In this document: piece after piece, positions 7,697 to 44,768 of the stretch
Layout: every line of letters starts with the position of its first letter
Numbering within the stretch: the stretch's first letter is position 1
DNA from: an uncultured Pseudomonadota bacterium
Lineage (GTDB): Bacteria; Pseudomonadota; Alphaproteobacteria; JACZXZ01
Assembly (NCBI GenBank): GCA_963749075.1
Contig: CAVVLJ010000021.1
Coordinates: 128,001-192,000 of the forward strand
DNA length: 64,000 bases
Reading direction: 5' to 3'
The notes under the pieces: generated by a model
Database searches by the model: none
What the model was told of the DNA's origin: nothing
Seen by the model: the letters and a program-made list of their open reading frames with translations, nothing else
Made by a program: the position numbers and the translations under genes

Positions 7697-8929
7697 ATGG
7701 CGCAGGCTCGATCGACGGCGGGCGAAGCGGCCCCCTCGCGCATCGCGGCGCTGATTGCGGCGCGGGAGCCCGGACGCGGCCTCGCCGGCGCCTTCTATGA
7801 TGACCCCGAGATCTACGAGCGCGACCTCGCGCGCATCTTCCACCGCCACTGGCTCTGCGCCGGCCATGCCAGCGCTGCCGCGGCACCGGGCGACTATTTC
7901 CTCGCCAACGCCGGCGGCGAGGAGATCATCGTCGCCCGCGGCCGCGACGGCGAGCTCAATGCGCTTCTCAACGTCTGCCGCCACCGCGGCTCGCGCATTT
8001 GCAGCGTGCCGGCCGGTCATGCCGACTTCTTCGTCTGCCCCTACCACGCCTGGAGCTACGCGCTCGACGGCAGCCTCGCGGCGGCGCGGCACATGCCGCA
8101 AGGCTTCGATAGGACCGCGCACGGGCTCAAGCGGCTGCATCTCCGCGTGGCCGAGGGGCTCGTCTTCGTCTCCTTCGCAAGCACGCCGCTCGATTTCACG
8201 CCGGTTGCCGGCGCGCTCAGCGGTTCCTGCGGGCGCTACGGCTGGGCTGCGGCCAAGGTGGCGCACCGCGAGCGCTACGCCATCGCGGCCAACTGGAAGC
8301 TCGCCGTCGAGAACTATGTGGAATGCTACCATTGCAGCCCGGCGCATCCCGAGTATTCGCGCCTGCATGCCCTCGAGCAGCCGCTGCCGCGCATCGCCGC
8401 CCTCAATGCGCGCATGGCCGAGCGCACCGCGGCACTCGGCATCGCGGTGGCGGAGTGCCACCAGTGGCGCACCTCCGAGCGTGGCGCCGAGGCGATCGAC
8501 TGCTTCCGCTATGCGCTCTACGAAGGTGTCGCGACCGGCAGCCCCGACGGCCGGCCGGTGGCACCGCTCATGGGCGATTTCACCGGCTATGACGGGGGTG
8601 TGACCTCCGTGCACGTCGGAGGTGCGAGCTTCCTCCTCGCCTATCCCGATCACGGCGTCGTCTACCGCTTTGCGCCCAAGGGGCCGGATGCCGTTGAGAT
8701 GGAGCTCGTCTGGCTCGTGCGCGGCGATGCCCGGGAAGGCGTCGATTACGACAAGGAGCGCCTCGTCTGGCTCTGGCAGGTGACGAGCGAGGCGGACAAG
8801 CGCATCATCGAGCGCACGGCCGAGGGCGTACGCTCGCGCTTCTTCGAGCCGGGTCCGCTGGCACCCATGGAATACAACGAGCGCCGCTACATCGAGTGGT
8901 ATCTCGCGGAGATTTCCGGTCTTATGTAG
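7697..8929 (+). CDS. Rieske non-heme iron oxygenase alpha subunit (GbcA/choline monooxygenase-like)
   Basis: CRHRG...CPYHAW Rieske motif; ENYVECYHC...H iron ligands; the stop codon lies inside the element's left end. Confidence 0.9.
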   Translation: MAQARSTAGEAAPSRIAALIAAREPGRGLAGAFYDDPEIYERDLARIFHRHWLCAGHASAAAAPGDYFLANAGGEEIIVARGRDGELNALLNVCRHRGSRICSVPAGHADFFVCPYHAWSYALDGSLAAARHMPQGFDRTAHGLKRLHLRVAEGLVFVSFASTPLDFTPVAGALSGSCGRYGWAAAKVAHRERYAIAANWKLAVENYVECYHCSPAHPEYSRLHALEQPLPRIAALNARMAERTAALGIAVAECHQWRTSERGAEAIDCFRYALYEGVATGSPDGRPVAPLMGDFTGYDGGVTSVHVGGASFLLAYPDHGVVYRFAPKGPDAVEMELVWLVRGDAREGVDYDKERLVWLWQVTSEADKRIIERTAEGVRSRFFEPGPLAPMEYNERRYIEWYLAEISGLM

Positions 8930-9069
8930 CTGACGCACCGATTGACGGCTAATTATTGCGTATAACAAGAAAAACCCGCAATAAAACTGATAAATCCTTG
9001 AAGTAGCCAAAATTCGATCCCTTAATAATCCAGTCATCAAGCATTTTCCTTAAGCACAGGAGCGCTTGA

Positions 9070-9261
9070 ATGACTGACCTAGACCCCGATCTGGCATCCG
9101 CCTTCTGCGACGCTCATTTTGAGGGATCGGCAAAGAAGGTGATGCAGGGCGCCCTGCGCACGTTCATCAAGGATCAACTATCTAGGGATTTGGCGACGAA
9201 AGAGCGATCCGACGAGCTTCAGAAAAAGCGGAATGGCGGGAAGCCAGACGGCTCGAATTGA
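9070..9261 (+). CDS. Small hypothetical protein, ribbon-helix-helix-like
   Basis: 63 aa, AGGAG upstream, helical VMQGALRTFI segment; fold call is inference. Confidence 0.5.
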   Translation: MTDLDPDLASAFCDAHFEGSAKKVMQGALRTFIKDQLSRDLATKERSDELQKKRNGGKPDGSN

Positions 9262-9510
9262 CGGTATTCGGGCACAAATGGGACCAATCCCGAGTCGCAA
9301 TCATGCTCCTGTGTGGCAGTGCCACGATCATCGGCGAACGTGTTACGGGCGTCCTGCCTGTGCCAGGCCCTTAGGAAGGCAGCCGCTAAGCGATTCAAAC
9401 GACTCGGTTTTGTTATAGAAGGCGTCTACACTGCATCGAGTCGCTTGCCCGCTTGAGGCAGAGCGCTAATTCCTCTTGCTCCTTTGATTCCGAGAGAGTA
9501 GAGAGTTGTG

Positions 9511-9526
9511 TATCAATATCTTGTGG
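9511..9526. promoter_or_regulatory. NrdR-box-like site upstream of pyrE
   Basis: TATCAATATCTTGTGG versus consensus acaCwAtATaTwGtgt (core CwATATnTwGTG matches). Confidence 0.55.
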
Positions 9527-9608
9527 TTGGGATGGGCTCCACCGCATACCCCTGGGCGACCTCGTCACGATTAGTCAGGCCTTGGGTATAAAACCTAGGG
9601 AAACGCAC

Positions 9609-10190
9609 ATGGCTCAGGTCGCCAGTAAGCCCGCTCGATTCGATCAGGACGGCCGCCGTGAGCGTCTGCGTCATATCATCGCAGATATGTGCTTCACGAC
9701 GGGGCCGACATTCCGGCTCGCCTCGGGAAGGGAAAGCAATTTCTATTTCAATCTTAAAAAGGCGATGCTCGACCCCGAGGGGATTGAGTTGTTGGCTGAT
9801 CTCATATTGGAAGAGACCGCTGGCATTCGTGCCGACTATGTGGGCGGTCTCGCAATGGGGGCAGTCCCGGTCGTCGTCGCGGTAGTTATGAAAAGCCGCG
9901 GAGGAAACCGGCCGCTGAGAGGGTTCTGGGTTCGCAAAGAGGCCAAGGGCCACGGGACTAACGACTTGACGGACGGCCATATCGTTGACGGCTCGCGAGT
10001 TATCATCGTTGATGACGTGACGACCACGGGCGGCTCTATCAAGCAGGCGATAGAGGAGGTCAAAAGGCATAACTGCGAAATCGCCGCTGTCATAACGATC
10101 GTTGATCGATTGGAGGGCGCTAAGGAAGCCCTTGCTAAGGATGGCGTCGAGCTTATTGCGCTGTATGATACGAACGATTTCCTCCCCTAA
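9609..10190 (+). CDS. pyrE: Orotate phosphoribosyltransferase (element-borne)
   Basis: FRLASGRESNFY, VRKEAKGHG loop, PRPP motif IIVDDVTTTGGS. Confidence 0.9.
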   Translation: MAQVASKPARFDQDGRRERLRHIIADMCFTTGPTFRLASGRESNFYFNLKKAMLDPEGIELLADLILEETAGIRADYVGGLAMGAVPVVVAVVMKSRGGNRPLRGFWVRKEAKGHGTNDLTDGHIVDGSRVIIVDDVTTTGGSIKQAIEEVKRHNCEIAAVITIVDRLEGAKEALAKDGVELIALYDTNDFLP

Positions 10191-10244
10191 AGGTTCACCA
10201 GAGTTTGCGGGTTCCCCCTTAAAGGGAAACGGTGACTCGTGGGG

Positions 10245-10508
10245 ATGCATAGCGACGAGATCGCGGCAATAGCAACATTCGCCCTAGAGCACTCCACCGC
10301 TTATCCTGTCCTGTCCCTCGTGCTCCTCACCGTCGTTGATCGTATCGAAAACGAATACGACGGCGGCGCTATAACAGAAGATCGAGCGGCACAGCTTGAT
10401 GAGCTTGAACCGTTGATCCGAGCTGCCATGACAGCGCCCGGTGACTTTGCGAAGTTACAAACGATTTGCAGAAAATTTATGACGGTATTCGATATTGGCG
10501 CGCACTGA
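10245..10508 (+). CDS. Hypothetical helical protein
   Basis: 87-aa ORF directly after pyrE inside the element; no family recognised. Confidence 0.55.
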   Translation: MHSDEIAAIATFALEHSTAYPVLSLVLLTVVDRIENEYDGGAITEDRAAQLDELEPLIRAAMTAPGDFAKLQTICRKFMTVFDIGAH

Positions 10509-10611
10509 GGATCCGATTCTGGACCCCGGCTAGGTGCAAGACACCCACTCCGATGCCAAGGCCGGTCCCAATGAGAAACAGAATAATGGTGAGGTCGTCG
10601 CCTTGTGGCAT
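10477..10611 (-). CDS. 44-aa single-TM small protein or truncated membrane protein
   Basis: MPQGDDLTIILFLIGTGLGIGVGVLHLAGVQNRILSARQYRIPS; AGGGGG RBS-like run upstream; below the ORF-track cutoff. Confidence 0.4.
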   Translation of the reverse strand: MPQGDDLTIILFLIGTGLGIGVGVLHLAGVQNRILSARQYRIPS

Positions 10612-10716
10612 AGCGCTACCCCCTGAGCACGCCCCTTTTGTATAGCAGGAAATGATACCGAGAATGGTGAGTCAGCTACATAAGGCCGGAAATTTCCTGA
10701 GCGCTCCCGCGTCCGC

Positions 10717-11088
10717 TCATCGCCGCTTTTTCCCTCCCGCCGGCTTCAAGTGCCTGACGAGCTCCGCGACCGTCGCCTCGGGGAGCGCGCGGATGCGCTC
10801 GGCGAGGAGATTGGCGAGCTCGGTCTTGGCGGGCGAGAGCCCGGCGGTATCGACCGTGACGCGCGGATGGGAGAGGCGGGCGAGGCCCCTCAGCTCCTCG
10901 GCATCGTCCCAATAGAGGCCGAAATAGTCGCAGATCTGGTGCACCAGGCCGTTGGCCGGCCGCCCGCGCCGGCCGTGCTCGAGGGCGGAGAGGTAGGCGG
11001 CGGAGAGCTCGAGGGAGGCCGCCATGTCGCGGAGCGTGACACCGCGCGCGAGGCGCAGCGCCCGCACCCGCTCGCCGAAGGGCGTCAT
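10717..11088 (-). CDS. XRE-family helix-turn-helix protein
   Basis: LSAAYLSALEHGRRG; typical neighbour of smr in Alphaproteobacteria. Confidence 0.88.
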   Translation of the reverse strand: MTPFGERVRALRLARGVTLRDMAASLELSAAYLSALEHGRRGRPANGLVHQICDYFGLYWDDAEELRGLARLSHPRVTVDTAGLSPAKTELANLLAERIRALPEATVAELVRHLKPAGGKKRR

Positions 11089-11103
11089 GGCTCGCCCACT
11101 ACC

Positions 11104-24735: not shown

Positions 24736-25178
24736 GCTGGCTCGTGCCCATCTACCCTTGGGTCAAGGCGTTCCACGTCATCAGCGTGATCGCCTGGATG
24801 GCGGGGCTTCTCTACCTGCCGCGCCTCTTCGTCTATCACTGCGAGGCGGCGGCCGGCGCGGCCGAGGACAAGCGCTTCCAGACCATGGAACGGCGGCTGC
24901 TGCGCGCCATCATGAACCCGGCGATGGTCGCGGCGTACCTCACGGGCGGGCTGTTGCTGGCGACGCCGGGGTTGGTCGATTGGTCGCAGGGCTGGATTTA
25001 TGTCAAGCTCGCGGGCGTCGCCGTGCTCACCTGGGCCCAGCATGCCATGGGGCGCTGGCGCAACGATTTCGCCGCGGGCGCCAACAGGCATCCCCAGCGC
25101 TTCTACCGCATCATGAACGAGGTTCCCACGGTCGCCATGATCGTGATCGTGATCATGGTGGTCGTGAAACCGTTCTGA
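24732..25178 (+). CDS. hemJ: Protoporphyrinogen oxidase HemJ
   Basis: [27 protein letters not shown], ends KPF. Confidence 0.95.
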
Positions 25179-25441
25179 GGGAAGGGCGCCTGCGCCCGGG
25201 TGCCGCACCTAAGGCGAGGGCGCAATTGAGCTTTCCCGCTGTCATCCGCATTTCGCTTGACGCGAGGGCCGCTTTGCGCGATCAATCTGGCGGATCTCCT
25301 CCAGCGACTCACGGCCTGCGTCCTTCCACGAGCTTGCGCCTGGTAGCTCCGCCTGCTCGGCGGGCATTATCCGATCATCCGGCCCGGCGCAGGGCGTCCG
25401 AGCGCTTCCCCTCCCCCCGATGCGACGCGAATAGGCGCGGC

Positions 25442-26782
25442 ATGAATCTTCAAGAGCTCAAGTCTAAGACCCCGGCGGATCTCCTGACCTACGCCGAGGA
25501 GATGCAGGTCGAGAACGCGAGCAACCTGCGCAAGCAGGAGCTCATGTTCGCCATCCTCAAGGTGCTCGCCGAGCGCGACATCGCCATCTTCGGCGACGGC
25601 GTGCTGGAGATCCTGCAGGACGGCTTCGGCTTCCTGCGCTCGCCCGAGGCCAATTATCTGCCGGGCCCGGACGACATCTACGTGTCGCCGAGCCAGGTGC
25701 GGCGCTTCGGCCTCCGGACCGGCGACACGGTGCAGGGGCAGATCAGGGCGCCCAAGGACGGCGAGCGCTATTTTGCCCTCCTCAAGGTCAACGAGATCAA
25801 CTTCGAGGACCCGGACAAGGTCCGCCACCGCATCAACTTCGACAACCTGACGCCGCTCTATCCCGACGATCGCTTCGTGCTCGAGCTCGAGCCCGATGCG
25901 CCGCCGCCGCCGGGCTCGAGCCCGACCGGCCCGGCGCCGCGCCGCGGCACCGGCTCGCGCGACACGGAGTTGCGCGACGTCTCGCGGCGCGACTTCACGG
26001 CGCGCGTCATCGACCTCATCAGCCCGCTCGGCAAGGGCCAGCGCGGCCTCATCGTGGCACCCCCGCGCACCGGCAAGACGGTGATGCTGCAGAACATCGC
26101 CCATTCGGTCGCGGCCAACCACCCCGAGGCCTACCTCATCGTGCTGCTCATCGACGAGCGGCCCGAGGAGGTCACCGACATGCAGCGCTCGGTCAAGGGC
26201 GAGGTCATCAGCTCGACCTTCGACGAGCCGGCGGTGCGCCACGTCCAGGTCGCCGAGATGGTGATCGAGAAGGCGAAGCGCCTCGTCGAGTACAAGCGCG
26301 ACGTGGTGATCCTCTTGGACTCGATCACGCGGCTCGCGCGCGCCTACAACACGGTGGTGCCGTCCTCGGGCAAGGTCCTGACCGGCGGCGTCGACGCCAA
26401 TGCCCTCCAGCGCCCCAAGCGCTTCTTCGGCGCCGCGCGCAACATCGAGGAGGGCGGCTCGCTCACCATCATCGCGACGGCGCTCGTCGACACCGGCTCG
26501 CGCATGGACGAGGTGATCTTCGAGGAGTTCAAGGGCACCGGCAATTCCGAGATCATCCTCGACCGCAAGCTCTCGGACAAGCGCGTCTTCCCCTCGATCG
26601 ACATCACGCGCTCCGGCACGCGCAAGGAGGAGCTCCTCGTCGAGCGCGACGTGCTCGCCAAGATGTGGGTCTTGCGCCGCATCCTCATGCCCATGGGCAT
26701 GAACGACGCCATGGAGTTCCTCCTCGACAAGCTGCGCCACACCAAGACCAACGCCGAGTTCTTCCAGTCGATGAACCAGTAG
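25442..26782 (+). CDS. rho: Transcription termination factor Rho
   Basis: [40 protein letters not shown]. Confidence 0.98.
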
Positions 26783-32443: not shown

Positions 32444-32695
32444 ATGAAGATCAAGATCGACATCGACTGCACGCCGCTCGAGGCGCGGAGCTTCTTCGGC
32501 CTGCCCAACGTCGGCCCCATCCAGGCAGCACTCCTCGGCGACATGGAGCAGCGCATGCGCTCCGCACTCGCCACCATGGACCCCGAGGCCATGATGAAGA
32601 TGTGGCTGCCCGCGGGCATGCAGGGGCTCGAGCAGCTGCAGAAGTTCTTCTGGTCCCAGGGTGCCGGCGGCGGCCCGGAGCGCAAGGGGAAATAG
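32444..32695 (+). CDS. Small conserved protein (DUF6489-like)
   Basis: MKIKIDIDCTPLEARSFFGLP signature. Confidence 0.8.
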   Translation: MKIKIDIDCTPLEARSFFGLPNVGPIQAALLGDMEQRMRSALATMDPEAMMKMWLPAGMQGLEQLQKFFWSQGAGGGPERKGK

Positions 32696-32732
32696 CGCGC
32701 CAGGGGGGGATAGGCGGCGGGAGCGGGCCCGC

Positions 32733-34076
32733 ATGGCCGAGGAGCGGGATACCATCTTCGCCCTCTCGTCGGCGCCGGGACGCGCTGCGATCGCGGTCGT
32801 GCGGGTGAGCGGCCCGCGGGCCGGGGAGGCGCTGGTCCGCTTGCGCGGCGGCCGCAGCCTGCCCAAGCCGCGCGCGGCGGCCTACGCGCGCTTTCTCGAC
32901 CCCGCGAGCGGTGCGCCACTCGACGACGGCCTGGCCCTCTGGTTTCCGGCCCCTTCGAGCGAGACCGGCGAGGACGTGGCCGAGCTCCAGATCCACGGCG
33001 GCCGGGCGACCGTGGCGGGCGTCCTCGAGGCCCTCGCCAGGCTCCCCGGCTTCCGCCCGGCCGCGGCCGGCGAGTTCACCCGCCGCGCCTTCGAGAACGG
33101 CAAGCTCGACTTGACCGCGGTCGAGGGCCTTGCCGATCTGGTGGCGGCCGAGACCGAGGCTCAGCGCCTCCAGGCCCTGCGCCAGCTCCGCGGCGAGCTC
33201 GGCCGCCTCTACGAGGGCTGGCGCGAGCGGCTGCTCCGCCTCCTGGCCCACGGCGAGGCGGCGATCGATTTTCCCGACGAGAGTGCGGGGGAGGGGCTCG
33301 ATCGCGAGCGCTACGGCAAAGTCGCCCTGCTCGCCGGGGAGATAGCACAGCACCTCGCGGCACCGCGCCGCGGCGAGACCCTGCGCGACGGCCTCTCGCT
33401 CGCCATCCTGGGCGCCCCCAACGTGGGCAAGTCGAGCCTCATGAACGCGCTCGCCCGGCGCGACGTGGCGATCGTCTCGGAGCGCGCCGGCACCACGCGC
33501 GACGTGATCGAGGTGCATCTCGACCTCGCGGGCTACCCCGTGGTGCTGGCCAACACCGCGGGCCTGCGCGAGGCCCGCGACGAGATCGAGATGGAGGGCG
33601 TGCGCCGCGCGCGGGCGCGGGCGGAGCAGGCCAACCTGCGCATCGTCATGCTCGATGCCACGCAGTGGCCGGCGCTGCCGGCCGAGGTGGCGCCGCTCGT
33701 GGGCGAGGGCAGCCTCCTCGTCCTCAACAAGATCGACAAGCTGCGCCCGCCGCCGCCCCTCGAGATCGCGGGCCGCACGGTACTCGCCATCTCGGCGCTC
33801 ACCGGCGAGGGGATCGAGGAGCTGGTGCGGGCACTCGCGACGCTGGCCGCCGAGCGCATGGCGCTTCCCGAGGCACCCGCGCTCACCCGCCTCCGCCACC
33901 GCCAGGCCCTCGAGCGCTGCCGCGAGGCCCTTGAGCGCGCCCTCCGCGCCCCCTTGCCCGAGCTCGCCGTCGAGGACCTCCGCCTCGCCATGCGCGAGCT
34001 CGGCCGCATCACCGGCCGCGTCGACGTGGAGGACCTCCTCGACGTGATCTTTCGGGAGTTTTGTATTGGGAAGTAG
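32733..34076 (+). CDS. mnmE: tRNA modification GTPase
   Basis: TGED, GEFTRRAF, GAPNVGKSS, GTTRD, NKID, FCIGK; G3 motif reads NTAG instead of DTAG. Confidence 0.95.
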   Translation: MAEERDTIFALSSAPGRAAIAVVRVSGPRAGEALVRLRGGRSLPKPRAAAYARFLDPASGAPLDDGLALWFPAPSSETGEDVAELQIHGGRATVAGVLEALARLPGFRPAAAGEFTRRAFENGKLDLTAVEGLADLVAAETEAQRLQALRQLRGELGRLYEGWRERLLRLLAHGEAAIDFPDESAGEGLDRERYGKVALLAGEIAQHLAAPRRGETLRDGLSLAILGAPNVGKSSLMNALARRDVAIVSERAGTTRDVIEVHLDLAGYPVVLANTAGLREARDEIEMEGVRRARARAEQANLRIVMLDATQWPALPAEVAPLVGEGSLLVLNKIDKLRPPPPLEIAGRTVLAISALTGEGIEELVRALATLAAERMALPEAPALTRLRHRQALERCREALERALRAPLPELAVEDLRLAMRELGRITGRVDVEDLLDVIFREFCIGK

Positions 34077-34077
34077 G

Positions 34078-34100
34078 CGGTATTAGGTAGCAAACTCACC
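34078..34100 (+). mobile_element. Solo IS1595-family (ISNha5-like) terminal repeat opening the dcd cassette
   Basis: CGGTATTAGGTAGCAAACTCACC shares CGGnnTTAnGTAGCnnACnCACC with both ends of the 8917-10688 element; sits at the composition boundary; partner end not found. Confidence 0.75.
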
Positions 34101-34131
34101 TATCGTGAAAATTTGACCCTACAATAGAACA

Positions 34132-34686
34132 TTAAGGCGCGGCGGATTGCCCTTGAAACTGTCCGTACCCCTTTTCTGGAGTCCCGAAGGTCTGCTCAAA
34201 AATTAATTGGCAAATTCGCATACCTGGTTTTAGACGCACGGGCCGATGGCCATGGTTGACTATCTCCAGTCTTATTCGCCCTTCAAAGCCAGCATGTATC
34301 GTTGGGGCCGTCATGTGGATAGAAAGACCTATCCGCGCCAATGAGCTTCTCCCTTCAACTCGGGCCGCCAACCGAGATTCCTTTAGGTCGATGTACTCCT
34401 TCGTCCACGCAAGGATCATTGTGTGACGGGTCAATGGATAGCCGGCTTGCGGATCGATCGAAAAACTTGTTGTCAACTCCTTGACGACGACATCGCTTTT
34501 GAAATCAGCGTGTGTCGGGTCAATTATCATGTCGATCCCGGATGCAACCTCCTTGAAAAGGCTGATGTCGGGATCAAGCGTTAAGTCAATGCTCGACGAC
34601 TGGTACGCGACTTGCGGAGGGCGCGGCTCGACGGTTATCAGCCCCCGCTCAATGTAAATCTTGATTTCTCGATCCGTCAGGATCAC
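34132..34686 (-). CDS. dcd: dCTP deaminase (trimeric dUTPase fold)
   Basis: MILTDREI, SIDLTL, EGRSSLARIGL, GFEGRIRLEIVN, RICQLIFE. Confidence 0.9.
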   Translation of the reverse strand: MILTDREIKIYIERGLITVEPRPPQVAYQSSSIDLTLDPDISLFKEVASGIDMIIDPTHADFKSDVVVKELTTSFSIDPQAGYPLTRHTMILAWTKEYIDLKESRLAARVEGRSSLARIGLSIHMTAPTIHAGFEGRIRLEIVNHGHRPVRLKPGMRICQLIFEQTFGTPEKGYGQFQGQSAAP

Positions 34687-34940
34687 GCAGCAGCTTCCTC
34701 GACATCACTCCGGCGAACCCATATTCGCCAGCTTCCCCGAAGACTCTCGCGCGGCAATTCAACGAGAAGTTCGTCCGTTCCGCGAGCGCTGATTGGATAG
34801 CCTATCTTAACGCTATTGTCGGTTATTGACCGCCTGTCAACGATCAATTCTTCCGTTTTGCCATCCGCGGTGGTTACTGCGACCACCGCCTCACTCGGGT
34901 GCTGACCGTTACCAACGGTTCTGATTTTGAGTCGCGCCAT
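34683..34940 (-). CDS. Hypothetical beta-rich protein coupled to dcd
   Basis: 85 aa; GGGAGG upstream; stop overlaps the dcd GTG (GTGA); motifs HPSE, ELPRES, GSWRIWV. Confidence 0.75.
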   Translation of the reverse strand: MARLKIRTVGNGQHPSEAVVAVTTADGKTEELIVDRRSITDNSVKIGYPISARGTDELLVELPRESLRGSWRIWVRRSDVEEAAA

Positions 34941-35038
34941 GAGCTTAGCCCTCCCAGAACTTTTGCCGAACAAATTACCTGCGTTAGCCGAAAAAGGCGA
35001 CTCGGAATCCGATGCCCTTGTGTCTGGTCAACGCCGAT

Positions 35039-35054
35039 ACACTATATTTTGTGT
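35039..35054. promoter_or_regulatory. NrdR-box-like site upstream of the orf85-dcd operon
   Basis: ACACTATATTTTGTGT, 15/16 match to acaCwAtATaTwGtgt. Confidence 0.7.
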
Positions 35055-35139
35055 GCGAGCGCCGCCTATCGTCAACACAATTGTCGCATCGTTTTCACCT
35101 TATTTGTCATGATGACGATCTGCTAATGTCCTCAATGGG

Positions 35140-35415
35140 ATGGCTCGAAAAAATAATCGTATTCCGACAAAAACGACGACAATTACCCTAGCCTGGCCGC
35201 TATATGCGTACCTTGATAGGGCGATTGTTTTGGGGCGATATGGCGCAACACTGACCTCGGCCGCGGAGGTCGCCATTGATAAACACATTGGGTGGCTGAT
35301 CTCGGCTGGCAAAATTACGGAGTTGACCGCAGCCGAATTAGCCGCGCCGCCGTCATCGGATTATGTGCGAAAAAAGCGGAAGCCACGAACCAAGAAAACC
35401 GCCGCTTCCAGTTAG
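35140..35415 (+). CDS. Small hypothetical protein, ribbon-helix-helix-like, basic tail
   Basis: Beta-like TTTITL then helices LYAYLDRAIV and LTSAAEVAI; divergent from orf85-dcd; fold is inference. Confidence 0.6.
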   Translation: MARKNNRIPTKTTTITLAWPLYAYLDRAIVLGRYGATLTSAAEVAIDKHIGWLISAGKITELTAAELAAPPSSDYVRKKRKPRTKKTAASS

Positions 35416-35452
35416 AACGATCTTCCGCGGAGTTTCGTTCGAGACGCGCCGC

Positions 35453-35726
35453 CTATGGTGCCCTTAACCGCCACTTCCCCGGCCACGAGTCGCGGTCATA
35501 CCAGACGATAGGATTTCTCTGCCGCGAGAAACTGCTGCGGATCGTGTCGGCGAGCATCTCCACCGCAACCGGATCGGTATTCCTCTCCACGCTGACTAGG
35601 ATGCGCCTAGCGAACTCCTGGGCTGATAGAGCTTCGCCGCTCTCCCGTAGTATGTCGAAGTATGTCGAGCGCCTTGCGGCTTCCGGTGCCCTTGGGAAGG
35701 CCGGCCGGGTTCTTTCCGAATATCAC
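35453..35726 (-). pseudogene. Frameshifted winged-helix-like ORF
   Basis: Removing one copy of AGTATGTCGA x2 (35649-35668) gives VIFGKNPAGLPKGTGSRKALDILRESGEALSAQEFARRIL...SWPGKWRLRAP*; in-frame TAG at 35733-35735 just upstream. Confidence 0.6.
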
Positions 35727-35791
35727 TTTGGGCTAAATTTCTCGATATTATCGCGCAAACGCCACCAAGCCGAATTCACACTAGATCCCTG

Positions 35792-35965
35792 TCAACGCTC
35801 CTCGCGCCGTTTTTGCGCGGGCGGGGCACGGCCCTGCAACTGCGCTCTGGCCTCTTTTATCAATTCTTTCAGTACCTTGCGAACGCGCGGATCAGGCTGC
35901 TTGCGCAACAGCCTCGCCCAGCGTTGCAGGTCCTTCTGCAACGCGGCCCTATCCTCCTGTCCCAT
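35792..35965 (-). CDS. Small basic helical hypothetical protein
   Basis: 57 aa MGQEDRAALQKDLQRWARLL...; GAGG upstream. Confidence 0.5.
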   Translation of the reverse strand: MGQEDRAALQKDLQRWARLLRKQPDPRVRKVLKELIKEARAQLQGRAPPAQKRREER

Positions 35966-36171
35966 GCGGGCACCTCGCACGATTGGCGGGCGTCTCTGCC
36001 TCGTTGCATACGATCGTATTGGAGCGAGGAGGATTTCTCAAGAGCTTCGGCAGGCGGGGATCAAGCAGCTCCGGGCCCCGCTTCCGAGCTAGGGGATGCA
36101 CACGGATCCAAAGATCACCGGTAAATCATGTATCGCGCTTTGCAAAAGGTGCTTTGGACCGGCTGCGGTGC

Positions 36172-36283
36172 GTCCTTCGAGACGCTCGCTGCGCTCGCTC
36201 CTCAGGATGAGTTAAGGCCTTTCTGCCACGCACGGATTTACCTCGTCCTGAGGAGCGCCCCGAAGGGGCGCGTCTCGAAGGAC
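36172..36283. repeat. REP-like inverted pair (GTCCTTCGAGACGC...CCTCAGGATGAG / CTCGTCCTGAGG...GCGTCTCGAAGGAC)
   Basis: Two ~40-bp inverted units (36172-36211, 36242-36283) with a 30-bp spacer, each with an internal hairpin. Confidence 0.85.
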
Positions 36284-36337
36284 CCAGGGCGGCGGTGCAG
36301 GCGTTCTTGAGATGTGTGAATACCGTAGCGCTTCTGC

Positions 36338-36349
36338 GGGGGGGGGGGG
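36338..36349. repeat. G12 homopolymer
   Basis: 12 consecutive G upstream of the FNR box. Confidence 0.85.
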
Positions 36350-36412
36350 TGACGCGCGAGGCGGTTCGAGCCGATCGAATTACGCTTTAAGGGCCCGGCC
36401 GCAGCGCGACCG

Positions 36413-36426
36413 TTGATGTGAATCAA
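36413..36426. promoter_or_regulatory. FNR/FixK box
   Basis: Perfect TTGAT-GTGA-ATCAA (extends to CGTTGAT...ATCAACG) about 70 nt before nfnA. Confidence 0.9.
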
Positions 36427-36495
36427 CGCGCGATGCGTTTCATAGGGTTAAGAGCAGCGGCAGCCCCAAGGCCCTACGAGATCATGAGGCCCGAC

Positions 36496-37419
36496 ATGGA
36501 TCATGCGGAAGGCGGCAGCGGCGGCTTCGAGATCGTCCGCCGCGAGGACTTCTCGGACGTGACCTACCTCCTCGAGGTTCGCCATCCCTTGATGGCGAAA
36601 GCGGCCAAGCCCGGGCAGTTCGTCATCGTCATGTCGCATGAGGAGGGCGAACGCATCCCTCTCACCATCGCCGACTTCGACCGCGACAAGGGGATGGTCA
36701 CCCTGGTCATCCAGGCGGTCGGCAAGACGACGAGAGAGATGCAGCAGACGTGCAAGGCCGGGACCGCGCTTTACGCCCTCGTGGGTCCCATGGGCGTGCC
36801 GAGCGCCACGGGCGGCGCCAAGAAGGTCCTCTGCGTCGGCGGGGGGCTCGGCGTGGCGCCGGTCTTTCCCCAGGCGCGCGGCTTCAAGGAGAGCGGCGCC
36901 TACGTCATCGGCGTCCTCGGGTTCCGCACCAAGGGGCTCGTCTTCTGGGAGGAGAAATTCGCCGCCTGCTGCGACGAGCTGATCCTCTGCACCGACGACG
37001 GCTCGGCCGGCGTCAAGGGCTTCGTCAGCGACGGCATGCGGCTCGCCATCGCGAAGCATCCCGACATCGACGAGGCGATCGTCATCGGCCCGCCCGTCAT
37101 GATGAGGGCGTGCGTCGAGGTGACGCGTGCCAAAGCGATCAAGACGTTCGTCAGCCTCAATCCCATCATGGTCGACGGAACGGGGATGTGCGGCGGCTGC
37201 CGCGTCAAGGTGGGCGAGCAGGTCAAGTTCGCCTGCGTCGACGGCCCCGACTTCGACGGTCACAAGGTCGATTTCGACGATCTGATGATGCGCCTCAAGC
37301 GCTACGCCGAGGAGGAGAAGGCGGCCATGGAGCGCTGGTCGGAGGCCTGCCGCATGAGGAGCCTGGCCGGTGCGGCCCCGCTCGCGTCGCGGCTGCCCGA
37401 GCCGAGCGCACGGAGCTGA
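36496..37419 (+). CDS. NfnA/SudB-type ferredoxin-NADP reductase small subunit
   Basis: PGQFV, ERIPLT, GGGLGVAP, DGTGMCGGCR, CVDGP. Confidence 0.9.
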   Translation: MDHAEGGSGGFEIVRREDFSDVTYLLEVRHPLMAKAAKPGQFVIVMSHEEGERIPLTIADFDRDKGMVTLVIQAVGKTTREMQQTCKAGTALYALVGPMGVPSATGGAKKVLCVGGGLGVAPVFPQARGFKESGAYVIGVLGFRTKGLVFWEEKFAACCDELILCTDDGSAGVKGFVSDGMRLAIAKHPDIDEAIVIGPPVMMRACVEVTRAKAIKTFVSLNPIMVDGTGMCGGCRVKVGEQVKFACVDGPDFDGHKVDFDDLMMRLKRYAEEEKAAMERWSEACRMRSLAGAAPLASRLPEPSARS

Positions 37420-37463
37420 GCGGGCGAGGTCTTTGGCAGCGTCGGGCATCCCTCGAAAGGTGA

Positions 37464-38975
37464 ATGGCGATGGCGAAGAAAAAGACGATACGGACCATTC
37501 CGCAGAAACGCACCCCCGTCCGCGAGCAGGACGCGCGGGAGCGGGCGGGGAATTTTGCCGAGGTGAATTGCGGCTACAGCCAGGAGGAGGCGCTCCGCGA
37601 GTCCGAGCGTTGCCTGCTTTGCAAGGACCCGGTCTGCGTCGCCGGCTGCCCGGTCAACATCGATATCCCCGGCTTCATCGAAAAGCTCGGTGCCAAGGAT
37701 TTCCGCGGGGCCTATGAGACCATAACCCGGACCAATCTTCTGCCCGCCGTTTGCGGCCGGGTCTGCCCGCAGGAAACCCAGTGCGAGGGCGTCTGCGTGG
37801 TGGGCGAGACGCTGGAGCCGGTTGCCATCGGCCGGCTCGAGCGCTGGCTCGGCGACCGCGCCATCGCGGAGCATTGGGTGAGCGTTCCCTACATCGAGCC
37901 CAACGGCTTCAGGATCGGCATCGTGGGCTCCGGGCCCGCCGGTGCCGCCTGTGCCGCCGATATGGCCAAGGCGGGGTGCGAGGTCACGGTCTACGAAGCG
38001 TTCCATCAGCCGGGCGGCGTGTTGCGCTACGGCATCCCCGATTTCCGTCTGCCCAACGAGGTGATCGATGCCGAGATCGGCAACCTCGGCAAGCTCGGCG
38101 TCAAGTTCGAGTGCAACACGCTGGTCGGACGCCTCTTCACCATCGAGCAGATGATCGGCGAGCTCGGTTTCGACGCCGTCTTCATCGGCACCGGCGCCGG
38201 CTACCCCTCGATGCTCGGGATCCCCGGCGACTCCCTCAACGGCGTGCTCTCGGCCAACGAGCTCTTGACGCGCTGCAATCTGATGCGCGCCAAGGAGTTC
38301 CCCAACTACGACACGCCCCTGCCGCTCGGCCGCCGCGTTGCCGTGGTCGGCGCCGGCAACACGGCGATGGATGCCATGAGGGTCTGCCTGAGGCTGGGTG
38401 CCGAGAAGGTTTTCTGCGTCTACCGCCGCAGCAGGGCGGAGTGCCCCGCGCGCGCGGAGGAAGTCCATCATGCGGAGGAAGAGGGGATCGAATTCCACTG
38501 GCTGACCAATCCCTCAGCCATCCTCGCCGACGACAAGGGGGGCGTGCGCGCCATGCGGTGCCTGCAAATGACGCTCGGCGAGCCCGACGAATCGGGCCGG
38601 CGGCGCCCCGTTCCGCTTGCCGGCAGCGAGCATGAGCTGGAGGTCGATCAGGTCGTCTTCGCGATCGGAACGAACGCGAACCCGATCATCGGCCAGACCG
38701 CGAAACTTCGCCTCAACAAGCGGGGCTACATCGAGACGGACGAGAGCCTGGCTACCTCGATGGCGGGCGTCTTCGCCGGCGGCGACATCGTCACCGGTGC
38801 GGCGACCGTGATCGAGGCGATGGGCGCCGGCCGCAAGGCCGCGCGCAGCATGAAGGCCTATCTCGGGCTGCGCGATTACGGCGAGGAGGCTTCCTCGGAA
38901 GGGGGAGCTCCGGCCGGCACGCTCTTCGGCATCGATCTCAGGGAGCGCAATTTCGCGCGCATTCGCGTGGCTTAG
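37464..38975 (+). CDS. NfnB/SudA-type (GltD-like) large subunit
   Basis: RCLLCKDPVCVAGCP, CGRVCPQETQCE, GSGPAG, GAGNTAMD, YRRS, FAGGD. Confidence 0.9.
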   Translation: MAMAKKKTIRTIPQKRTPVREQDARERAGNFAEVNCGYSQEEALRESERCLLCKDPVCVAGCPVNIDIPGFIEKLGAKDFRGAYETITRTNLLPAVCGRVCPQETQCEGVCVVGETLEPVAIGRLERWLGDRAIAEHWVSVPYIEPNGFRIGIVGSGPAGAACAADMAKAGCEVTVYEAFHQPGGVLRYGIPDFRLPNEVIDAEIGNLGKLGVKFECNTLVGRLFTIEQMIGELGFDAVFIGTGAGYPSMLGIPGDSLNGVLSANELLTRCNLMRAKEFPNYDTPLPLGRRVAVVGAGNTAMDAMRVCLRLGAEKVFCVYRRSRAECPARAEEVHHAEEEGIEFHWLTNPSAILADDKGGVRAMRCLQMTLGEPDESGRRRPVPLAGSEHELEVDQVVFAIGTNANPIIGQTAKLRLNKRGYIETDESLATSMAGVFAGGDIVTGAATVIEAMGAGRKAARSMKAYLGLRDYGEEASSEGGAPAGTLFGIDLRERNFARIRVA

Positions 38976-39038
38976 GCTGTCGGTACCCAAACGAGCGCCG
39001 CGCGGCGGCGCAGGAACTCAAAAGGCTGTGGCACGACC

Positions 39039-40952
39039 ATGAACGAAACCTCCCTAATGCAGCCCCTTCGCAACACGGCTCCGCCGGTCTCGCTGCCCGC
39101 CGGCCGGAAGGCGATCGCCACCTTGAGCGAGCACATCGTCGAGGTGATCAGCGATTCCGGCGAGGGCGCGCAACGATGCGGCCAGTCCCTGGGCGCCATC
39201 GCGGCGCGGATGGGGAATGGCGTCTGGACGGTCGAGATCATCCCCGCCGAAATCCGGCCGCCGGCGCGGAGCGTCGCCGGCGCCAGCGGAAACCGCATTC
39301 GCCTCGGCTCCCGCCGCGTCACCAACGGCGGCAACGAGACGGACCTCGTGGTGGCCTTCAACGAGCAGGTGCTTCTCGGGCGGGTGCGGGCAGGCGCGCT
39401 CAAGCCCGGCTGCATCGTGCTTCTCGAAAGCAAGTGGCGCGAGGATGCGGATCCGGCAATCGCGGCATCCTACGTGGATATCCACGACCAGCTCGTGACG
39501 GGCGGGTACAAGGTGCACGAGATCCCGATGGAGCGCGAGTGCCGGCTCATCGTCGGCGACGCGCGGCGCGGCAAGAACATGTTCGCGCTCGGCATGCTTT
39601 GCAGCCTCTACAGCCTGGAGCTGCAGCTGGCGCGCGAGCAGATCGCCCTCACCTTCGGCAAGAAGGACGAGAGCGTGATCAAGTCGAACGTCAAGCTCAT
39701 GGAGGCGGGCCACGAGTGGGCGGAGCGCAACCTCGACTTCAAGTTCCGCATCCCGGCGGAGCGGGTGAACGAACCGCAGATCGTGATCAACGGGAACACA
39801 GCACTGGCGCTCGGCATCCTCGCCTCGGGCATGGAAGTCTGCGCCATGTATCCCATCACGCCGGCGACCTCGGCGTCGCATTATCTGAGCGACGTCTTCG
39901 AGAAGGTGGGCGGCGTGGTGCATCAGGCGGAGGACGAGATCGCGGCCTGCGCTTTCGCGATCGGCGCCTCGTACGCCGGCAAATGCACGGTCACGATCAC
40001 CTCCGGCCCGGGCTACTCGCTCAAGCAGGAGGCGATCGGGCTTGCCGTGATGGGCGAGATTCCGCTGGTCGTCGTGAATGTGCAGCGCGGCGGTCCCTCG
40101 ACCGGCCAGCCGACGAAGGCGGAGCAGGGCGACCTCCTCACGGCCATGTTCGGCAGTCACGGCGATGCCCCCAAGGTGGTCATGGCGGCCAGCACGATCG
40201 AGGACTGCTTCTATTCCATCATCACCGCGCGCAAGATCGCCGAGACCTTCAACATGGTCGTCGTCGTGCTGTCCGACGCCAATCTGGCCACCTCCCAGCA
40301 GCCCTTCCCGCGGCCGCAATTCAGCGAGGCGTGGGTGGCGCCGCCGGTCGATCAGAGCAGAGTCCCCGCCGGTGCCAAGCCCTACGACTGGGATGCCTCC
40401 ATCGGCCTCGCGCGCCGCTTCATACCGGGTCAGCCCGACGGCATGCATACCCTGACCGGGCTCGCCCATGACAGGCTGAGCCACGTCGCGTACGACGCGG
40501 AGATCAACGAGGAGGGCATCCGCGCCCGCAGCCTCAAGCTGGCGGCGCTGCAGAAGACGCTGAAAGCGCCGCCGCTGTTCGGCGGCCAGACGGGCGAGCT
40601 TCTGGTCGTCGGCTGGGGCAGCACCAAGGGCGCCATCGAGGAGGCCGTGGAAAGCCTGCGCGAGGAGGGCCGCAAGGTGTCCTCCTTGCACCTCACGTTC
40701 CTCCAGCCCATGCCGCCTGGGATCAAGGAGATCATGCAGGGCTTCGAGAAGGTCGTGACGATCGAGAGCAACTGGTGCGACCGGCCGGAGGACGAGATCA
40801 TCGACGAGAGCAACCGGCGCTACTCGGCCCTCGCGATGCTGCTGCGCTCGCGCTACCTGATCGACGTCGATTGCTGGAGCGAGGTGCGGGGCGAGCCCAT
40901 CAAGCCCAATACGATCCGCCGCGTGATCCTCGAGCGGTTAGCTCGGCATTGA
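39039..40952 (+). CDS. 2-oxoacid:ferredoxin oxidoreductase alpha subunit (gamma-alpha fusion)
   Basis: DSGEG, YPITPA, QAEDE, TSGPG, QRGGPSTG, GWGST. Confidence 0.92.
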   Translation: MNETSLMQPLRNTAPPVSLPAGRKAIATLSEHIVEVISDSGEGAQRCGQSLGAIAARMGNGVWTVEIIPAEIRPPARSVAGASGNRIRLGSRRVTNGGNETDLVVAFNEQVLLGRVRAGALKPGCIVLLESKWREDADPAIAASYVDIHDQLVTGGYKVHEIPMERECRLIVGDARRGKNMFALGMLCSLYSLELQLAREQIALTFGKKDESVIKSNVKLMEAGHEWAERNLDFKFRIPAERVNEPQIVINGNTALALGILASGMEVCAMYPITPATSASHYLSDVFEKVGGVVHQAEDEIAACAFAIGASYAGKCTVTITSGPGYSLKQEAIGLAVMGEIPLVVVNVQRGGPSTGQPTKAEQGDLLTAMFGSHGDAPKVVMAASTIEDCFYSIITARKIAETFNMVVVVLSDANLATSQQPFPRPQFSEAWVAPPVDQSRVPAGAKPYDWDASIGLARRFIPGQPDGMHTLTGLAHDRLSHVAYDAEINEEGIRARSLKLAALQKTLKAPPLFGGQTGELLVVGWGSTKGAIEEAVESLREEGRKVSSLHLTFLQPMPPGIKEIMQGFEKVVTIESNWCDRPEDEIIDESNRRYSALAMLLRSRYLIDVDCWSEVRGEPIKPNTIRRVILERLARH

Positions 40953-40964
40953 GAGGACGCCGCC

Positions 40965-41957
40965 ATGACGATTGCCGCCAGCGAATGCCTGCTTCGCATG
41001 TACGACGAGCATCACGAGCTCGAGGACTACCAGAGCGGCGTGCCGCGCTGGTGCACCGGCTGCGGGGACAATGCCATTCTTACGGCCGTGCAGCGGCTCT
41101 GCCGCGACGAGGATCTGCGGCCGGAGAAGACCGTGTTCGTGTCGGGGATCGGCTGCTCGAGCCGCTTTCCCCATTACATGAGGACCTACGGGTTCCACGG
41201 CATCCACGGCCGCGCGCTGCCGGTCGCCGAAGGCATCAAGATGGCGCGGCCGGATCTGCACGTCTTCGTCAACACCGGCGACGGGGATTGCTGCAGCATC
41301 GGCGCCGCCCACTGGATCCACGCCATCCGCTACAACATGAACATGACGGTCATGCTGCACGACAACCAGATCTACGGCCTGACCAAGATGCAGGCTTCGC
41401 CGACCTCGCCGAAGGGGCTCAAGAGCAATACCACGCCGAGAGGCGCCTATCTGGAGGCGCTGCACCCGCTGAGCGTGACGCTCGGCGTCCAGAACGTCTC
41501 CTTCGTGGCGCAGGCGGTCGATTGGATACCGGAGGTGCTTTACGACATCATCTCGGCCGCCTTCCACCACAAGGGGCTCTCCTTCGTGCGCATCGTCCAG
41601 CGCTGCCCGGAATGGTTGCCTAAGCTGCTCGATCCCTGGCTTCACGATCCGCAGCGGGTCCTGCTCCTCAACCATGAGCGGGGTCTCCGCATCAGCCCGG
41701 CCTTAGCCAAGGTCTACAAGAATCAAGAGGAGCACGACCCCGCGAATCTCAACCGGGCGCGGGAGATCTCCTCGATCGACGATCCCATCCCGGTGGGCAT
41801 CCTTTATCGCAATGCCGACGTGCCCTGCTACGAGGAGCTGAGGAACGCCGGGCAGCTGCGTTCGAGCGGGCTCATCAAGGCGGGGCTCGAGAAGGAGTTC
41901 GACAAGTTCACGGTCTGGCCGCAGAGAACGGAAGAGCCGATCGAGGCCAATGCTTGA
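40965..41957 (+). CDS. 2-oxoacid:ferredoxin oxidoreductase beta subunit
   Basis: WCTGCGD, SGIGCSSR, HGRALP, GDGD...N TPP motif, YGLTK. Confidence 0.92.
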   Translation: MTIAASECLLRMYDEHHELEDYQSGVPRWCTGCGDNAILTAVQRLCRDEDLRPEKTVFVSGIGCSSRFPHYMRTYGFHGIHGRALPVAEGIKMARPDLHVFVNTGDGDCCSIGAAHWIHAIRYNMNMTVMLHDNQIYGLTKMQASPTSPKGLKSNTTPRGAYLEALHPLSVTLGVQNVSFVAQAVDWIPEVLYDIISAAFHHKGLSFVRIVQRCPEWLPKLLDPWLHDPQRVLLLNHERGLRISPALAKVYKNQEEHDPANLNRAREISSIDDPIPVGILYRNADVPCYEELRNAGQLRSSGLIKAGLEKEFDKFTVWPQRTEEPIEANA

Positions 41958-44247: not shown

Positions 44248-44303
44248 TCGGCGAGAAATACCCTCTCCGTTGCACGCAATGCGTGTGGTCAAGGCGGACG
44301 AAG

Positions 44304-44600
44304 TTATCCGAGCGAGCCGAGGCGGAGCGTCCAAGGGATCAGCTGGGTAATCTCGAGGAGAGCCATGCGGGTCCATGGATTTTCGGAGAGGCGCGCCCTG
44401 ATCTCTTGCGCATCTTTCGCTCGAATGACCAGCAAGGCGTCTCGCGTGCCCTCGAGCGGCCCTCCTATGAGCACGAAGCCCTCGGCCTGAAGAGCGTTCA
44501 TGAACAGAGCATGAGCCTTCCACGCCTCCTGCTCTTCCATCGGCAGCGAGTCGTTCCAAGCACTACCCCGCGAGCGCGTGACGGCGAAAAGTCGTGCCAT
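44304..44600 (-). CDS. YciI-like protein
   Basis: AHALFM, IGGPL, PW pattern; GGAGG upstream. Confidence 0.7.
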   Translation of the reverse strand: MARLFAVTRSRGSAWNDSLPMEEQEAWKAHALFMNALQAEGFVLIGGPLEGTRDALLVIRAKDAQEIRARLSENPWTRMALLEITQLIPWTLRLGSLG

Positions 44601-44702
44601 GGATTGATCCTCCGAGCCGCGGTGCGGCCGCCGGCTATCTTGTTGCCTGCGCAGCCGTCGGCGCAACTGCTCTGCCATCTGCCGGCGCGGCCAGCCGCAC
44701 CC

Positions 44703-44718
44703 CGTTTCACGTGAAACA
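44703..44718. promoter_or_regulatory. parS centromere site
   Basis: CGTTTCACGTGAAACA upstream of mnmG. Confidence 0.92.
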
Positions 44719-44768
44719 TCCCGCGCGCCGCTTTGACTTGCCGCCGCTCCGCCCGTAAATTCCGCGCC

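Follow-up and report, generated by a model that had tools for sequence, protein, structure and literature searches.

We identified a probable mobile insertion cassette (MIC) in a 64-kb stretch of DNA from an uncultured alphaproteobacterium (contig CAVVLJ010000021.1, positions 128,001 to 192,000), the whole of which is referred to below as the window. The element, at positions 8917-10688 of the window, is in all likelihood a non-autonomous derivative of the IS1595 family of insertion sequences (IS). It is bounded by terminal inverted repeats related to the ends of transposase-encoding IS1595-family elements and flanked by an 8-bp duplication. It differs in composition from the surrounding chromosome, carries a gene of the PyrE (orotate phosphoribosyltransferase, OPRT) type, and contains no transposase gene. 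Its transposition would have depended on an enzyme supplied in trans, and the element may still be able to move.

The element proper measures 1772 bp including both repeats, and spans 8909-10696 when the flanking octamers are added. Its left terminal inverted repeat (IRL, 8917..8939, forward strand) opens with a CGG tip, and the right terminal inverted repeat (IRR, 10666..10688, reverse strand) is identical to IRL at 21 of 23 positions. Immediately outside the tips are two octamers, GAGATTTC on the left (8909..8916), within the last codons of an oxygenase gene, and GAAATTTC on the right (10689..10696), which agree at seven of eight positions. The left junction therefore reads GAGATTTC followed by CGGTCTTATGTAGCTGACGCACC..., and the right junction the reverse complement of CGGCCTTATGTAGCTGACTCACC followed by GAAATTTC. 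A repeat search recovered inverted arms at 8908-8939 and 10666-10697 (32 nt, 91% complementary), the longest among the 38 inverted pairs in positions 8500-11100. When a 24-nt pattern taken from the left end was sought across the window with up to 3 mismatches, only two sites were found, both of them the ends of the element, and this two-match outcome was obtained in none of 100 dinucleotide-preserving shuffles.

For the origin of the ends, we searched plasmid sequences by blastn at a permissive E-value, using a 36-nt query that consisted of the left end only, with the repeat tip at query position 5. This search returned six records, three alphaproteobacterial and three from Bacteroides. All three alphaproteobacterial matches begin no more than 1-3 nt from the repeat tip (query positions 3-5); the Bacteroides matches, each of 18 nt and internal to the query, were taken as chance, as was the one match obtained with the right end, an 18-nt internal match in Haloferax. 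In Skermanella rosea plasmid pSR-1 (NZ_CP086112.1) and Skermanella sp. TT6 plasmid pTT6-1 (NZ_CP067421.1), the match lies upstream of a gene annotated as an IS1595-family transposase, at a distance of approximately 170 bp; the product of this gene carries the PF12762 DDE_Tnp_IS1595 domain (2e-35) and the PF12760 zinc ribbon, and scores above the cut-off of NF033547. Over its first 20 nt, IRL matches the right end of the Skermanella sp. TT6 element (locus L003) without a mismatch. Of its first 16 nt, 14-16 recur in the ends from Skermanella, Limimaricola and Mesorhizobium, and 12-13 in those of the Rhodovastum element on RHOApa.

The transposase of S. rosea was used as a tblastn query and matched 19 plasmid records at E ≤1e-30, the genera among the matches listed being all alphaproteobacterial. 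Five further loci were fetched in addition to the Skermanella pair, and element ends were sought in all seven, of which five had ends that could be defined. Each of the five has CGG at both termini, followed by a TCTTATGTAGC-like core, and in four of them perfect 8-bp duplications lie directly outside the CGG tips. These are the S. rosea element (L005; 1691 bp, ggaagaac on both sides), which splits a DUF2254 gene; the Rhodovastum elements on RHOApa (L006; 1594 bp, caaacccg on both sides) and RHOApc (L007; 1596 bp, gatcgatc on both sides); and the Limimaricola element (L009; 1543 bp, cagcagct on both sides). The fifth, that of Skermanella TT6 (L003; 1699 bp), lacks a duplication, and the ends of a second TT6 copy (L011) were partly resolved. 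As the CGG tips are bordered by a perfect duplication of 8 bp in four of the five relatives, we read the octamers flanking the present element as a target-site duplication, and the element itself as 8917-10688. The section of PMC8101967 that deals with the family describes 8-bp duplications as usual among IS1595 members, together with zinc-ribbon and DDE domains. The present element has both the flanking octamers of family length (GAGATTTC/GAAATTTC, seven of eight positions) and repeats that resemble the ends of DDE_Tnp_IS1595-encoding elements.

These results bear on an initial annotation of the window, made from the letters alone. The 23-bp inverted repeats that it proposed, with 21 of 23 positions identical, were recovered at 8917-8939 and 10666-10688. 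Its assignment of the ends to the IS1595 family agrees with the match between the repeat tips and the transposase-encoding Skermanella elements, and its reading of the octamers as an 8-bp duplication with the perfect duplications in four of five relatives. It had also described the ends and duplication as intact: both are present, but the repeats differ at two positions and the duplication at one. Similarly, it had described an AT-richer interior of 1772 bp, and while the lower G+C content stands, this length is that of the whole element including its repeats.

The interior of the element differs from its surroundings on both sides. The two 5-kb flanks have G+C contents of 0.691 and 0.706, and the interior one of 0.538; at third codon positions, G+C is 0.55-0.66 in the cassette genes and 0.86-0.91 in the genes of the flanks. 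On either side, the G+C content drops at the repeat, and on this compositional evidence the interior is foreign DNA. The single mismatch in the duplication and the two in the repeats suggest that the insertion is not brand new, and a composition that is still unameliorated suggests that it is not ancient.

No transposase was found in the element. Pfam searches of the element's open reading frames (ORFs) detected neither DDE_Tnp_IS1595 nor any other transposase domain, and four related transposases and two accessory proteins, searched by tblastn against the whole 64-kb window, gave chance-level matches only (best E 0.21). Comparison of the cassette with the five autonomous elements and with a transposase-less element from Mesorhizobium (blastn and tblastn) identified only the terminal 23-28 nt in common, and no remnant of a transposase or accessory gene was found within the cassette in the searches against the five autonomous elements. 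As it encodes no transposase of its own, the cassette is, on sequence grounds, a derivative of the IS1595 family and not an IS proper, and it is very probably not a decayed IS either. Between its IS-type inverted repeats lie genes that are unrelated to transposition, and no transposase, which is the arrangement that defines a MIC.

It could alternatively be proposed that a complete IS1595-family element inserted at this site and that its interior was later replaced in situ by foreign DNA, in which case the cassette would never have moved as a unit. The cassette (1772 bp) and the autonomous relatives (1543-1699 bp) are similar in length, and no second copy was found in the plasmids or representative genomes searched, both of which would fit such a history. 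We nonetheless consider it unlikely, as it would require two exchanges just inside the 23-nt repeats and as no fragment of a transposase or accessory gene remains. In addition, the Mesorhizobium element, a 631-bp relative with an unrelated interior, shows that elements of this type do form non-autonomous derivatives.

We investigated the insertion site through the gene that the element interrupts. The target gene (7697..8929, forward strand) encodes the alpha subunit of a Rieske/ring-hydroxylating oxygenase (PF00355, PF00848), which resembles GbcA but falls far below the cut-off of the GbcA model. In its present form the oxygenase ends in ...YLAEISGLM, with IRL supplying the codons for GLM as well as the stop codon. 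When the element and one copy of the octamer are removed in silico, the protein ends in ...YLAEIS, followed directly by an in-frame TGA (10697..10699, forward strand). As judged from this reconstruction, the insertion replaced the stop codon of the oxygenase and added three residues. Among the homologues listed, 30 of 119 end at the predicted residue, as do 13 of the 20 best-scoring, the comparison including homologues that end in ...YLxEIA; the GLM ending occurs in none of the 119. The homologue C-termini thus lend indirect support, at the protein level, to a simple insertion.

This reconstruction also bears on the possibility that each repeat is a solo end, left by an insertion or deletion of its own, and that the DNA between them came by a different route such as homologous or illegitimate recombination. 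The two mismatches among the 23 repeat positions, the lack of a duplication in L003, and a possible solo end on a Rhizobium jaguaris replicon are all compatible with two independent events. Such a history would leave unexplained the octamers that match at seven of eight positions directly outside both tips, the clean reconstruction of the oxygenase C-terminus, and the coincidence of the G+C drop with the repeats on both sides, and we regard it as more improbable still than replacement in situ. Least credible of all is a chance or structural palindrome around an islet acquired by a non-transpositional route, with a merely coincidental likeness to IS1595 ends: the flanking octamer is palindromic and the window contains no transposase, but none of the 100 shuffles reproduced the pair, 20 nt of the repeat are identical to the end of an element that encodes an IS1595 transposase, all three alphaproteobacterial matches start at the tip, and the ORF list and a tRNA scan showed no gene for an integrase or a tRNA nearby, nor any direct repeat of the attachment type.

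The likeliest explanation is a cassette mobilised in trans. In this model, an autonomous relative from the same IS1595 clade, located elsewhere, would encode a DDE transposase with a zinc ribbon at its N terminus, and this enzyme would bind both ends and move the whole unit, comprising the two 23-nt repeats and approximately 1.7 kb of lower-G+C cargo. Insertion would take place at GARATTTC, among the final codons of the oxygenase gene, where the DNA would be cut with an 8-bp stagger, and repair of the cut would give rise to the 8-bp duplication. The trans-acting step is proposed by analogy with MICs and with MITEs (miniature inverted-repeat transposable elements).

Several observations weigh against this model. 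The octamer matches at only seven of eight positions and is near-palindromic, such that, within the window, the repeat could also be taken to extend outward by 9 nt (29 of 32 positions matching). L003 has no duplication, alone among the five relatives for which ends were defined, and an inverted-repeat search found no convincing end pair in the Methylobacterium (L008) or Microvirga (L010) loci, where the best pairs matched at 15-16 of 22 positions. The cognate transposase was not found within the 64-kb window, and a blastn search with the whole cassette did not find a second copy in plasmids. The empty site is reconstructed from protein C-termini, the closest oxygenase homologue being 80% identical, and 64 of the 119 homologues exceed the predicted length by two residues, while 25 end otherwise. 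Finally, a scan of representative genome contigs for the repeat pattern identified two Bacteroidales contigs only. Each of these, from metagenome-assembled genomes (MAGs), contains a single unpaired copy of the same 23-mer with 3 mismatches (L001, 6268-6290; L002, 10001-10023). We treated both as unrelated, the 23-mer in Bacteroidales being probably a conserved local sequence with no connection to the element.

For the cargo, we identified a PyrE-type orotate phosphoribosyltransferase gene at 9609..10190 (forward strand), encoding a type I phosphoribosyltransferase (PRTase) of 193 aa. The protein scores 140.9 bits against TIGR00336, for which the cut-off is 106.8, and matches PF00156 at 7e-14; its best solved relatives are the OPRTs 5hkf and 2p1z (approximately 1e-26). 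In alignment with 5hkf, the motifs SGRE..Y, VRKxAKxHG and VDDxxTTGGS are conserved, which correspond to the phosphoribosyl pyrophosphate-binding and flexible-loop motifs of type I PRTases. With a score above the cut-off of the pyrE model, the product is classified as a PyrE-type enzyme, and presumably has the corresponding activity.

Homologues of this protein are numerous, with 2417 proteins at E ≤0.001, the closest of them 82% identical. The few with names, which are 50-66% identical, come from alphaproteobacterial MAGs, Stellaceae among them. A tblastn search of plasmids returned 39 records, all below 60% identity (best 40%), none in a cassette-like context. We additionally considered an anti-phage PRTase effector, of the kind found in type III-A retrons and Shosta systems. 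The PADLOC matches to such effectors are weak and partial (PRTase_III-A, 7.8e-5; ShosT, 1.6e-3), the pyrE match is full-length and above its cut-off, and the cassette contains neither a reverse transcriptase nor a partner gene; this candidate was rejected.

The remaining reading frames of the cassette are small. ORF1 (9070..9261, forward strand) encodes 63 aa and has a good ribosome-binding site, AGGAG, 7 nt upstream. It matches no Pfam or NCBIfam family, has no fold match in the PDB at E ≤10, and gave protein-atlas scores of at most 0.89, to unnamed clusters only. Its AlphaFold2 model (predicted local distance difference test score, pLDDT, 82) consists of two helices (6-16 and 20-55) and contains no strand.

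ORF3 (10245..10508, forward strand) encodes 87 aa and is probably a real, if rare, gene. Only five proteins match it at E ≤0.001 among 1.84 billion representatives, two of them small end-to-end homologues (61% and 42% identity) and three of them large proteins (1827-2359 aa) that match in many short stretches; the alignment contains 26 invariant columns. The AlphaFold2 model of ORF3 is a bundle of four helices (pLDDT 69), for which a search of the PDB identified generic helical bundles only (best E 0.43). No Pfam, NCBIfam or PADLOC family and no usable protein-atlas match was found for ORF3, and tblastn against plasmids returned nothing. ORF4 (10477..10611, reverse strand), which overlaps ORF3 at the 3' end of the latter, encodes 44 aa that include a single hydrophobic stretch and matches no Pfam, NCBIfam or PADLOC family; its status as a gene is doubtful.

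We found no credible structured RNA in Rfam searches (at the gathering threshold over the window and at E ≤1 over the cassette), no tRNA in a tRNA scan, and no promoter-like or terminator-like sites in a scan of the cassette. As all of the plausible cassette genes are oriented in the same direction as the oxygenase gene, read-through transcription from the latter is possible.

The set of reading frames listed in the initial annotation, including pyrE and the 87-aa ORF, agrees with the ORF list and with the TIGR00336 match. Its statement that the cassette lacks a transposase was confirmed by the Pfam searches and by tblastn with the four related transposases, and the broader proposal of a transposase-less cassette with passenger genes is supported at the level of the family. 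In contrast, its description of the 63-aa ORF as similar to ribbon-helix-helix (RHH) proteins found no support, given the lack of Pfam, NCBIfam and PDB matches and a model of helices without a strand, although a strand formed only in a dimer would be invisible in a monomer model, and ORF1 might yet adopt an RHH fold.

The window as a whole represents core chromosome near the replication origin, and contains hisF/hisB, hslVU, rho, mnmE, mnmG, parB, leuS and dnaQ. To the right of the element lies a convergent gene for an XRE-type helix-turn-helix (HTH) protein (10717-11088), the 3' end of which faces the element. We noted that the Rho ORF (24758-26782) is 674 aa long and that the Rho model matches it in two stretches, the best of them residues 410-672, which suggests either that the protein has a long N-terminal region or an insertion, or that its start was over-called.

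We additionally identified a second region of atypical composition in the window. The genes mnmE and mnmG are separated by approximately 10.6 kb (32661-46658), and the interval contains a low-G+C islet, genes for GltD-like and dihydroorotate-dehydrogenase-B-like oxidoreductases, and a 2-oxoacid:acceptor oxidoreductase alpha/beta pair. The islet (34100-36200) directly follows mnmE (32661-34076) and has a G+C content of 0.50-0.60, against a window mean of 0.69. It carries a dCTP-deaminase-like gene of 184 aa (34132-34686, minus strand; PF22769, 5.7e-36) and several small ORFs without a family. We found no bounding inverted repeats around this islet, no PADLOC match within it, and no likeness to the pyrE cassette. 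Both foreign islets of the window carry enzymes of pyrimidine-nucleotide metabolism.

The cassette is a well-formed MIC of an IS family with housekeeping-type cargo, and as such belongs to a kind of element that is already known. A literature search found no description of an IS1595-family MIC, and one may nevertheless exist in print. Automatic annotation of this region would report only an orotate phosphoribosyltransferase and hypothetical proteins, and would miss the foreign origin of the gene, its mobile frame, and the rewritten C-terminus of the neighbouring oxygenase. The case documents an alphaproteobacterial IS1595 clade with CGG-tipped ends, a CGGTCTTATGTAGC core, target duplications of 8 bp and an accessory gene that is conserved and convergent; the clade has one non-autonomous derivative that is MITE-like and one that carries genes. 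It should be useful for the annotation of IS and for understanding how housekeeping-type genes spread, without implying a new kind of mechanism.

A broader scenario, to which we give little credence, is that the cargo is not random and that the cassette belongs to a population of cassettes of the IS1595 family by which compact modules of nucleotide metabolism move among alphaproteobacterial chromosomes, the extra PyrE and the 87-aa and 63-aa proteins acting together, as a self-contained module, to reshape the pyrimidine pool. Were this the case, the module might, for example, confer resistance to a pyrimidine analogue, or counter the interference of phages or competitors with nucleotide supply, and the second islet with its dCTP-deaminase-like gene would represent a parallel case.

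The closest known systems are the autonomous alphaproteobacterial plasmid elements of Skermanella rosea, Skermanella sp. TT6, Rhodovastum atsumiense and Limimaricola variabilis. These have the same CGG tip and CGGTCTTATGTAGC core as the cassette, a target duplication of the same 8-bp length, and a similar overall length (1.5-1.8 kb). Unlike the cassette, they encode a transposase of 320-339 aa (DDE_Tnp_IS1595 and zinc ribbon) and a conserved convergent accessory ORF of approximately 140-155 aa, and their G+C content is 0.64-0.66, against 0.54 in the cassette. The convergent ORF lies just downstream of the transposase gene in every annotated autonomous element of the clade (L003, 10179-10610; L005, 10170-10601; L006, 3957-4406; L007, 3981-4406; L009, 3920-4387; L010, 4017-4463). 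The Skermanella and Rhodovastum proteins are 43% identical, and no Pfam family was matched other than a weak HARE-HTH match (0.0022). From this distribution, the ORF looks like a conserved accessory gene of the IS1595 clade.

Two further plasmid loci carry ends of the same type. A MITE-like element of 631 bp is present on plasmid pB1-1-8 of Mesorhizobium sp. B1-1-8 (L004, 9001-9631). Like the cassette, it has the same tips, an 8-bp duplication that matches at seven of eight positions (cgaaaagg/cgaagagg), and no transposase, and its interior bears no relation to the autonomous elements. At a third of the cassette's length, it has no annotated gene between its ends, whereas the cassette has at least three plausible genes. 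The existence of this transposase-less element indicates that the IS1595 clade yields non-autonomous derivatives. An annotated Phd/VapC pair lies approximately 250 bp from the Mesorhizobium element, which is upstream of the pair and does not include it. On Rhizobium jaguaris pRCCGE525c, we identified a single end of the same type (CGGTCTTATGTAGCAAATGCCACC...; L012, 5001-5028), followed by a TetR-like ORF and an F1-ATPase-alpha-like ORF. No partner for it was found within 5 kb by motif search, and this sequence may be a solo end or may terminate a larger element.

Among passenger-carrying members of the family, the ISNha5 subgroup has a CGGnnTT end motif, several kilobases of passenger genes and transposases that cluster with that of ISNha5. 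The cassette tips, CGGTCTT and CGGCCTT, fit this motif; the autonomous relatives are only 1.5-1.7 kb long and have one accessory gene. The IS1595 family is described, in the part of PMC11891212 that concerns it, as including transporter IS (tIS) such as ISNha5, with a transcription regulator as passenger. Such tIS have IS1595-family ends with passenger genes between them, as does the cassette, but retain the transposase that the cassette lacks. The first MIC described was MIC231, associated with IS231 in Bacillus cereus. The concept of the MIC, like that of the MITE, is set out in passages of PMC3129680 and PMC3281130, the movement of a MIC being ascribed presumptively to a cognate IS that acts in trans. 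In MICs, as in the cassette, genes that are unrelated to transposition lie between IS-type inverted repeats in the absence of a transposase. MIC231 and the cassette differ in IS family (IS4/IS231 for MIC231, IS1595 here), in the phylum of the host, and in cargo, which in the present cassette is a pyrE-type gene.

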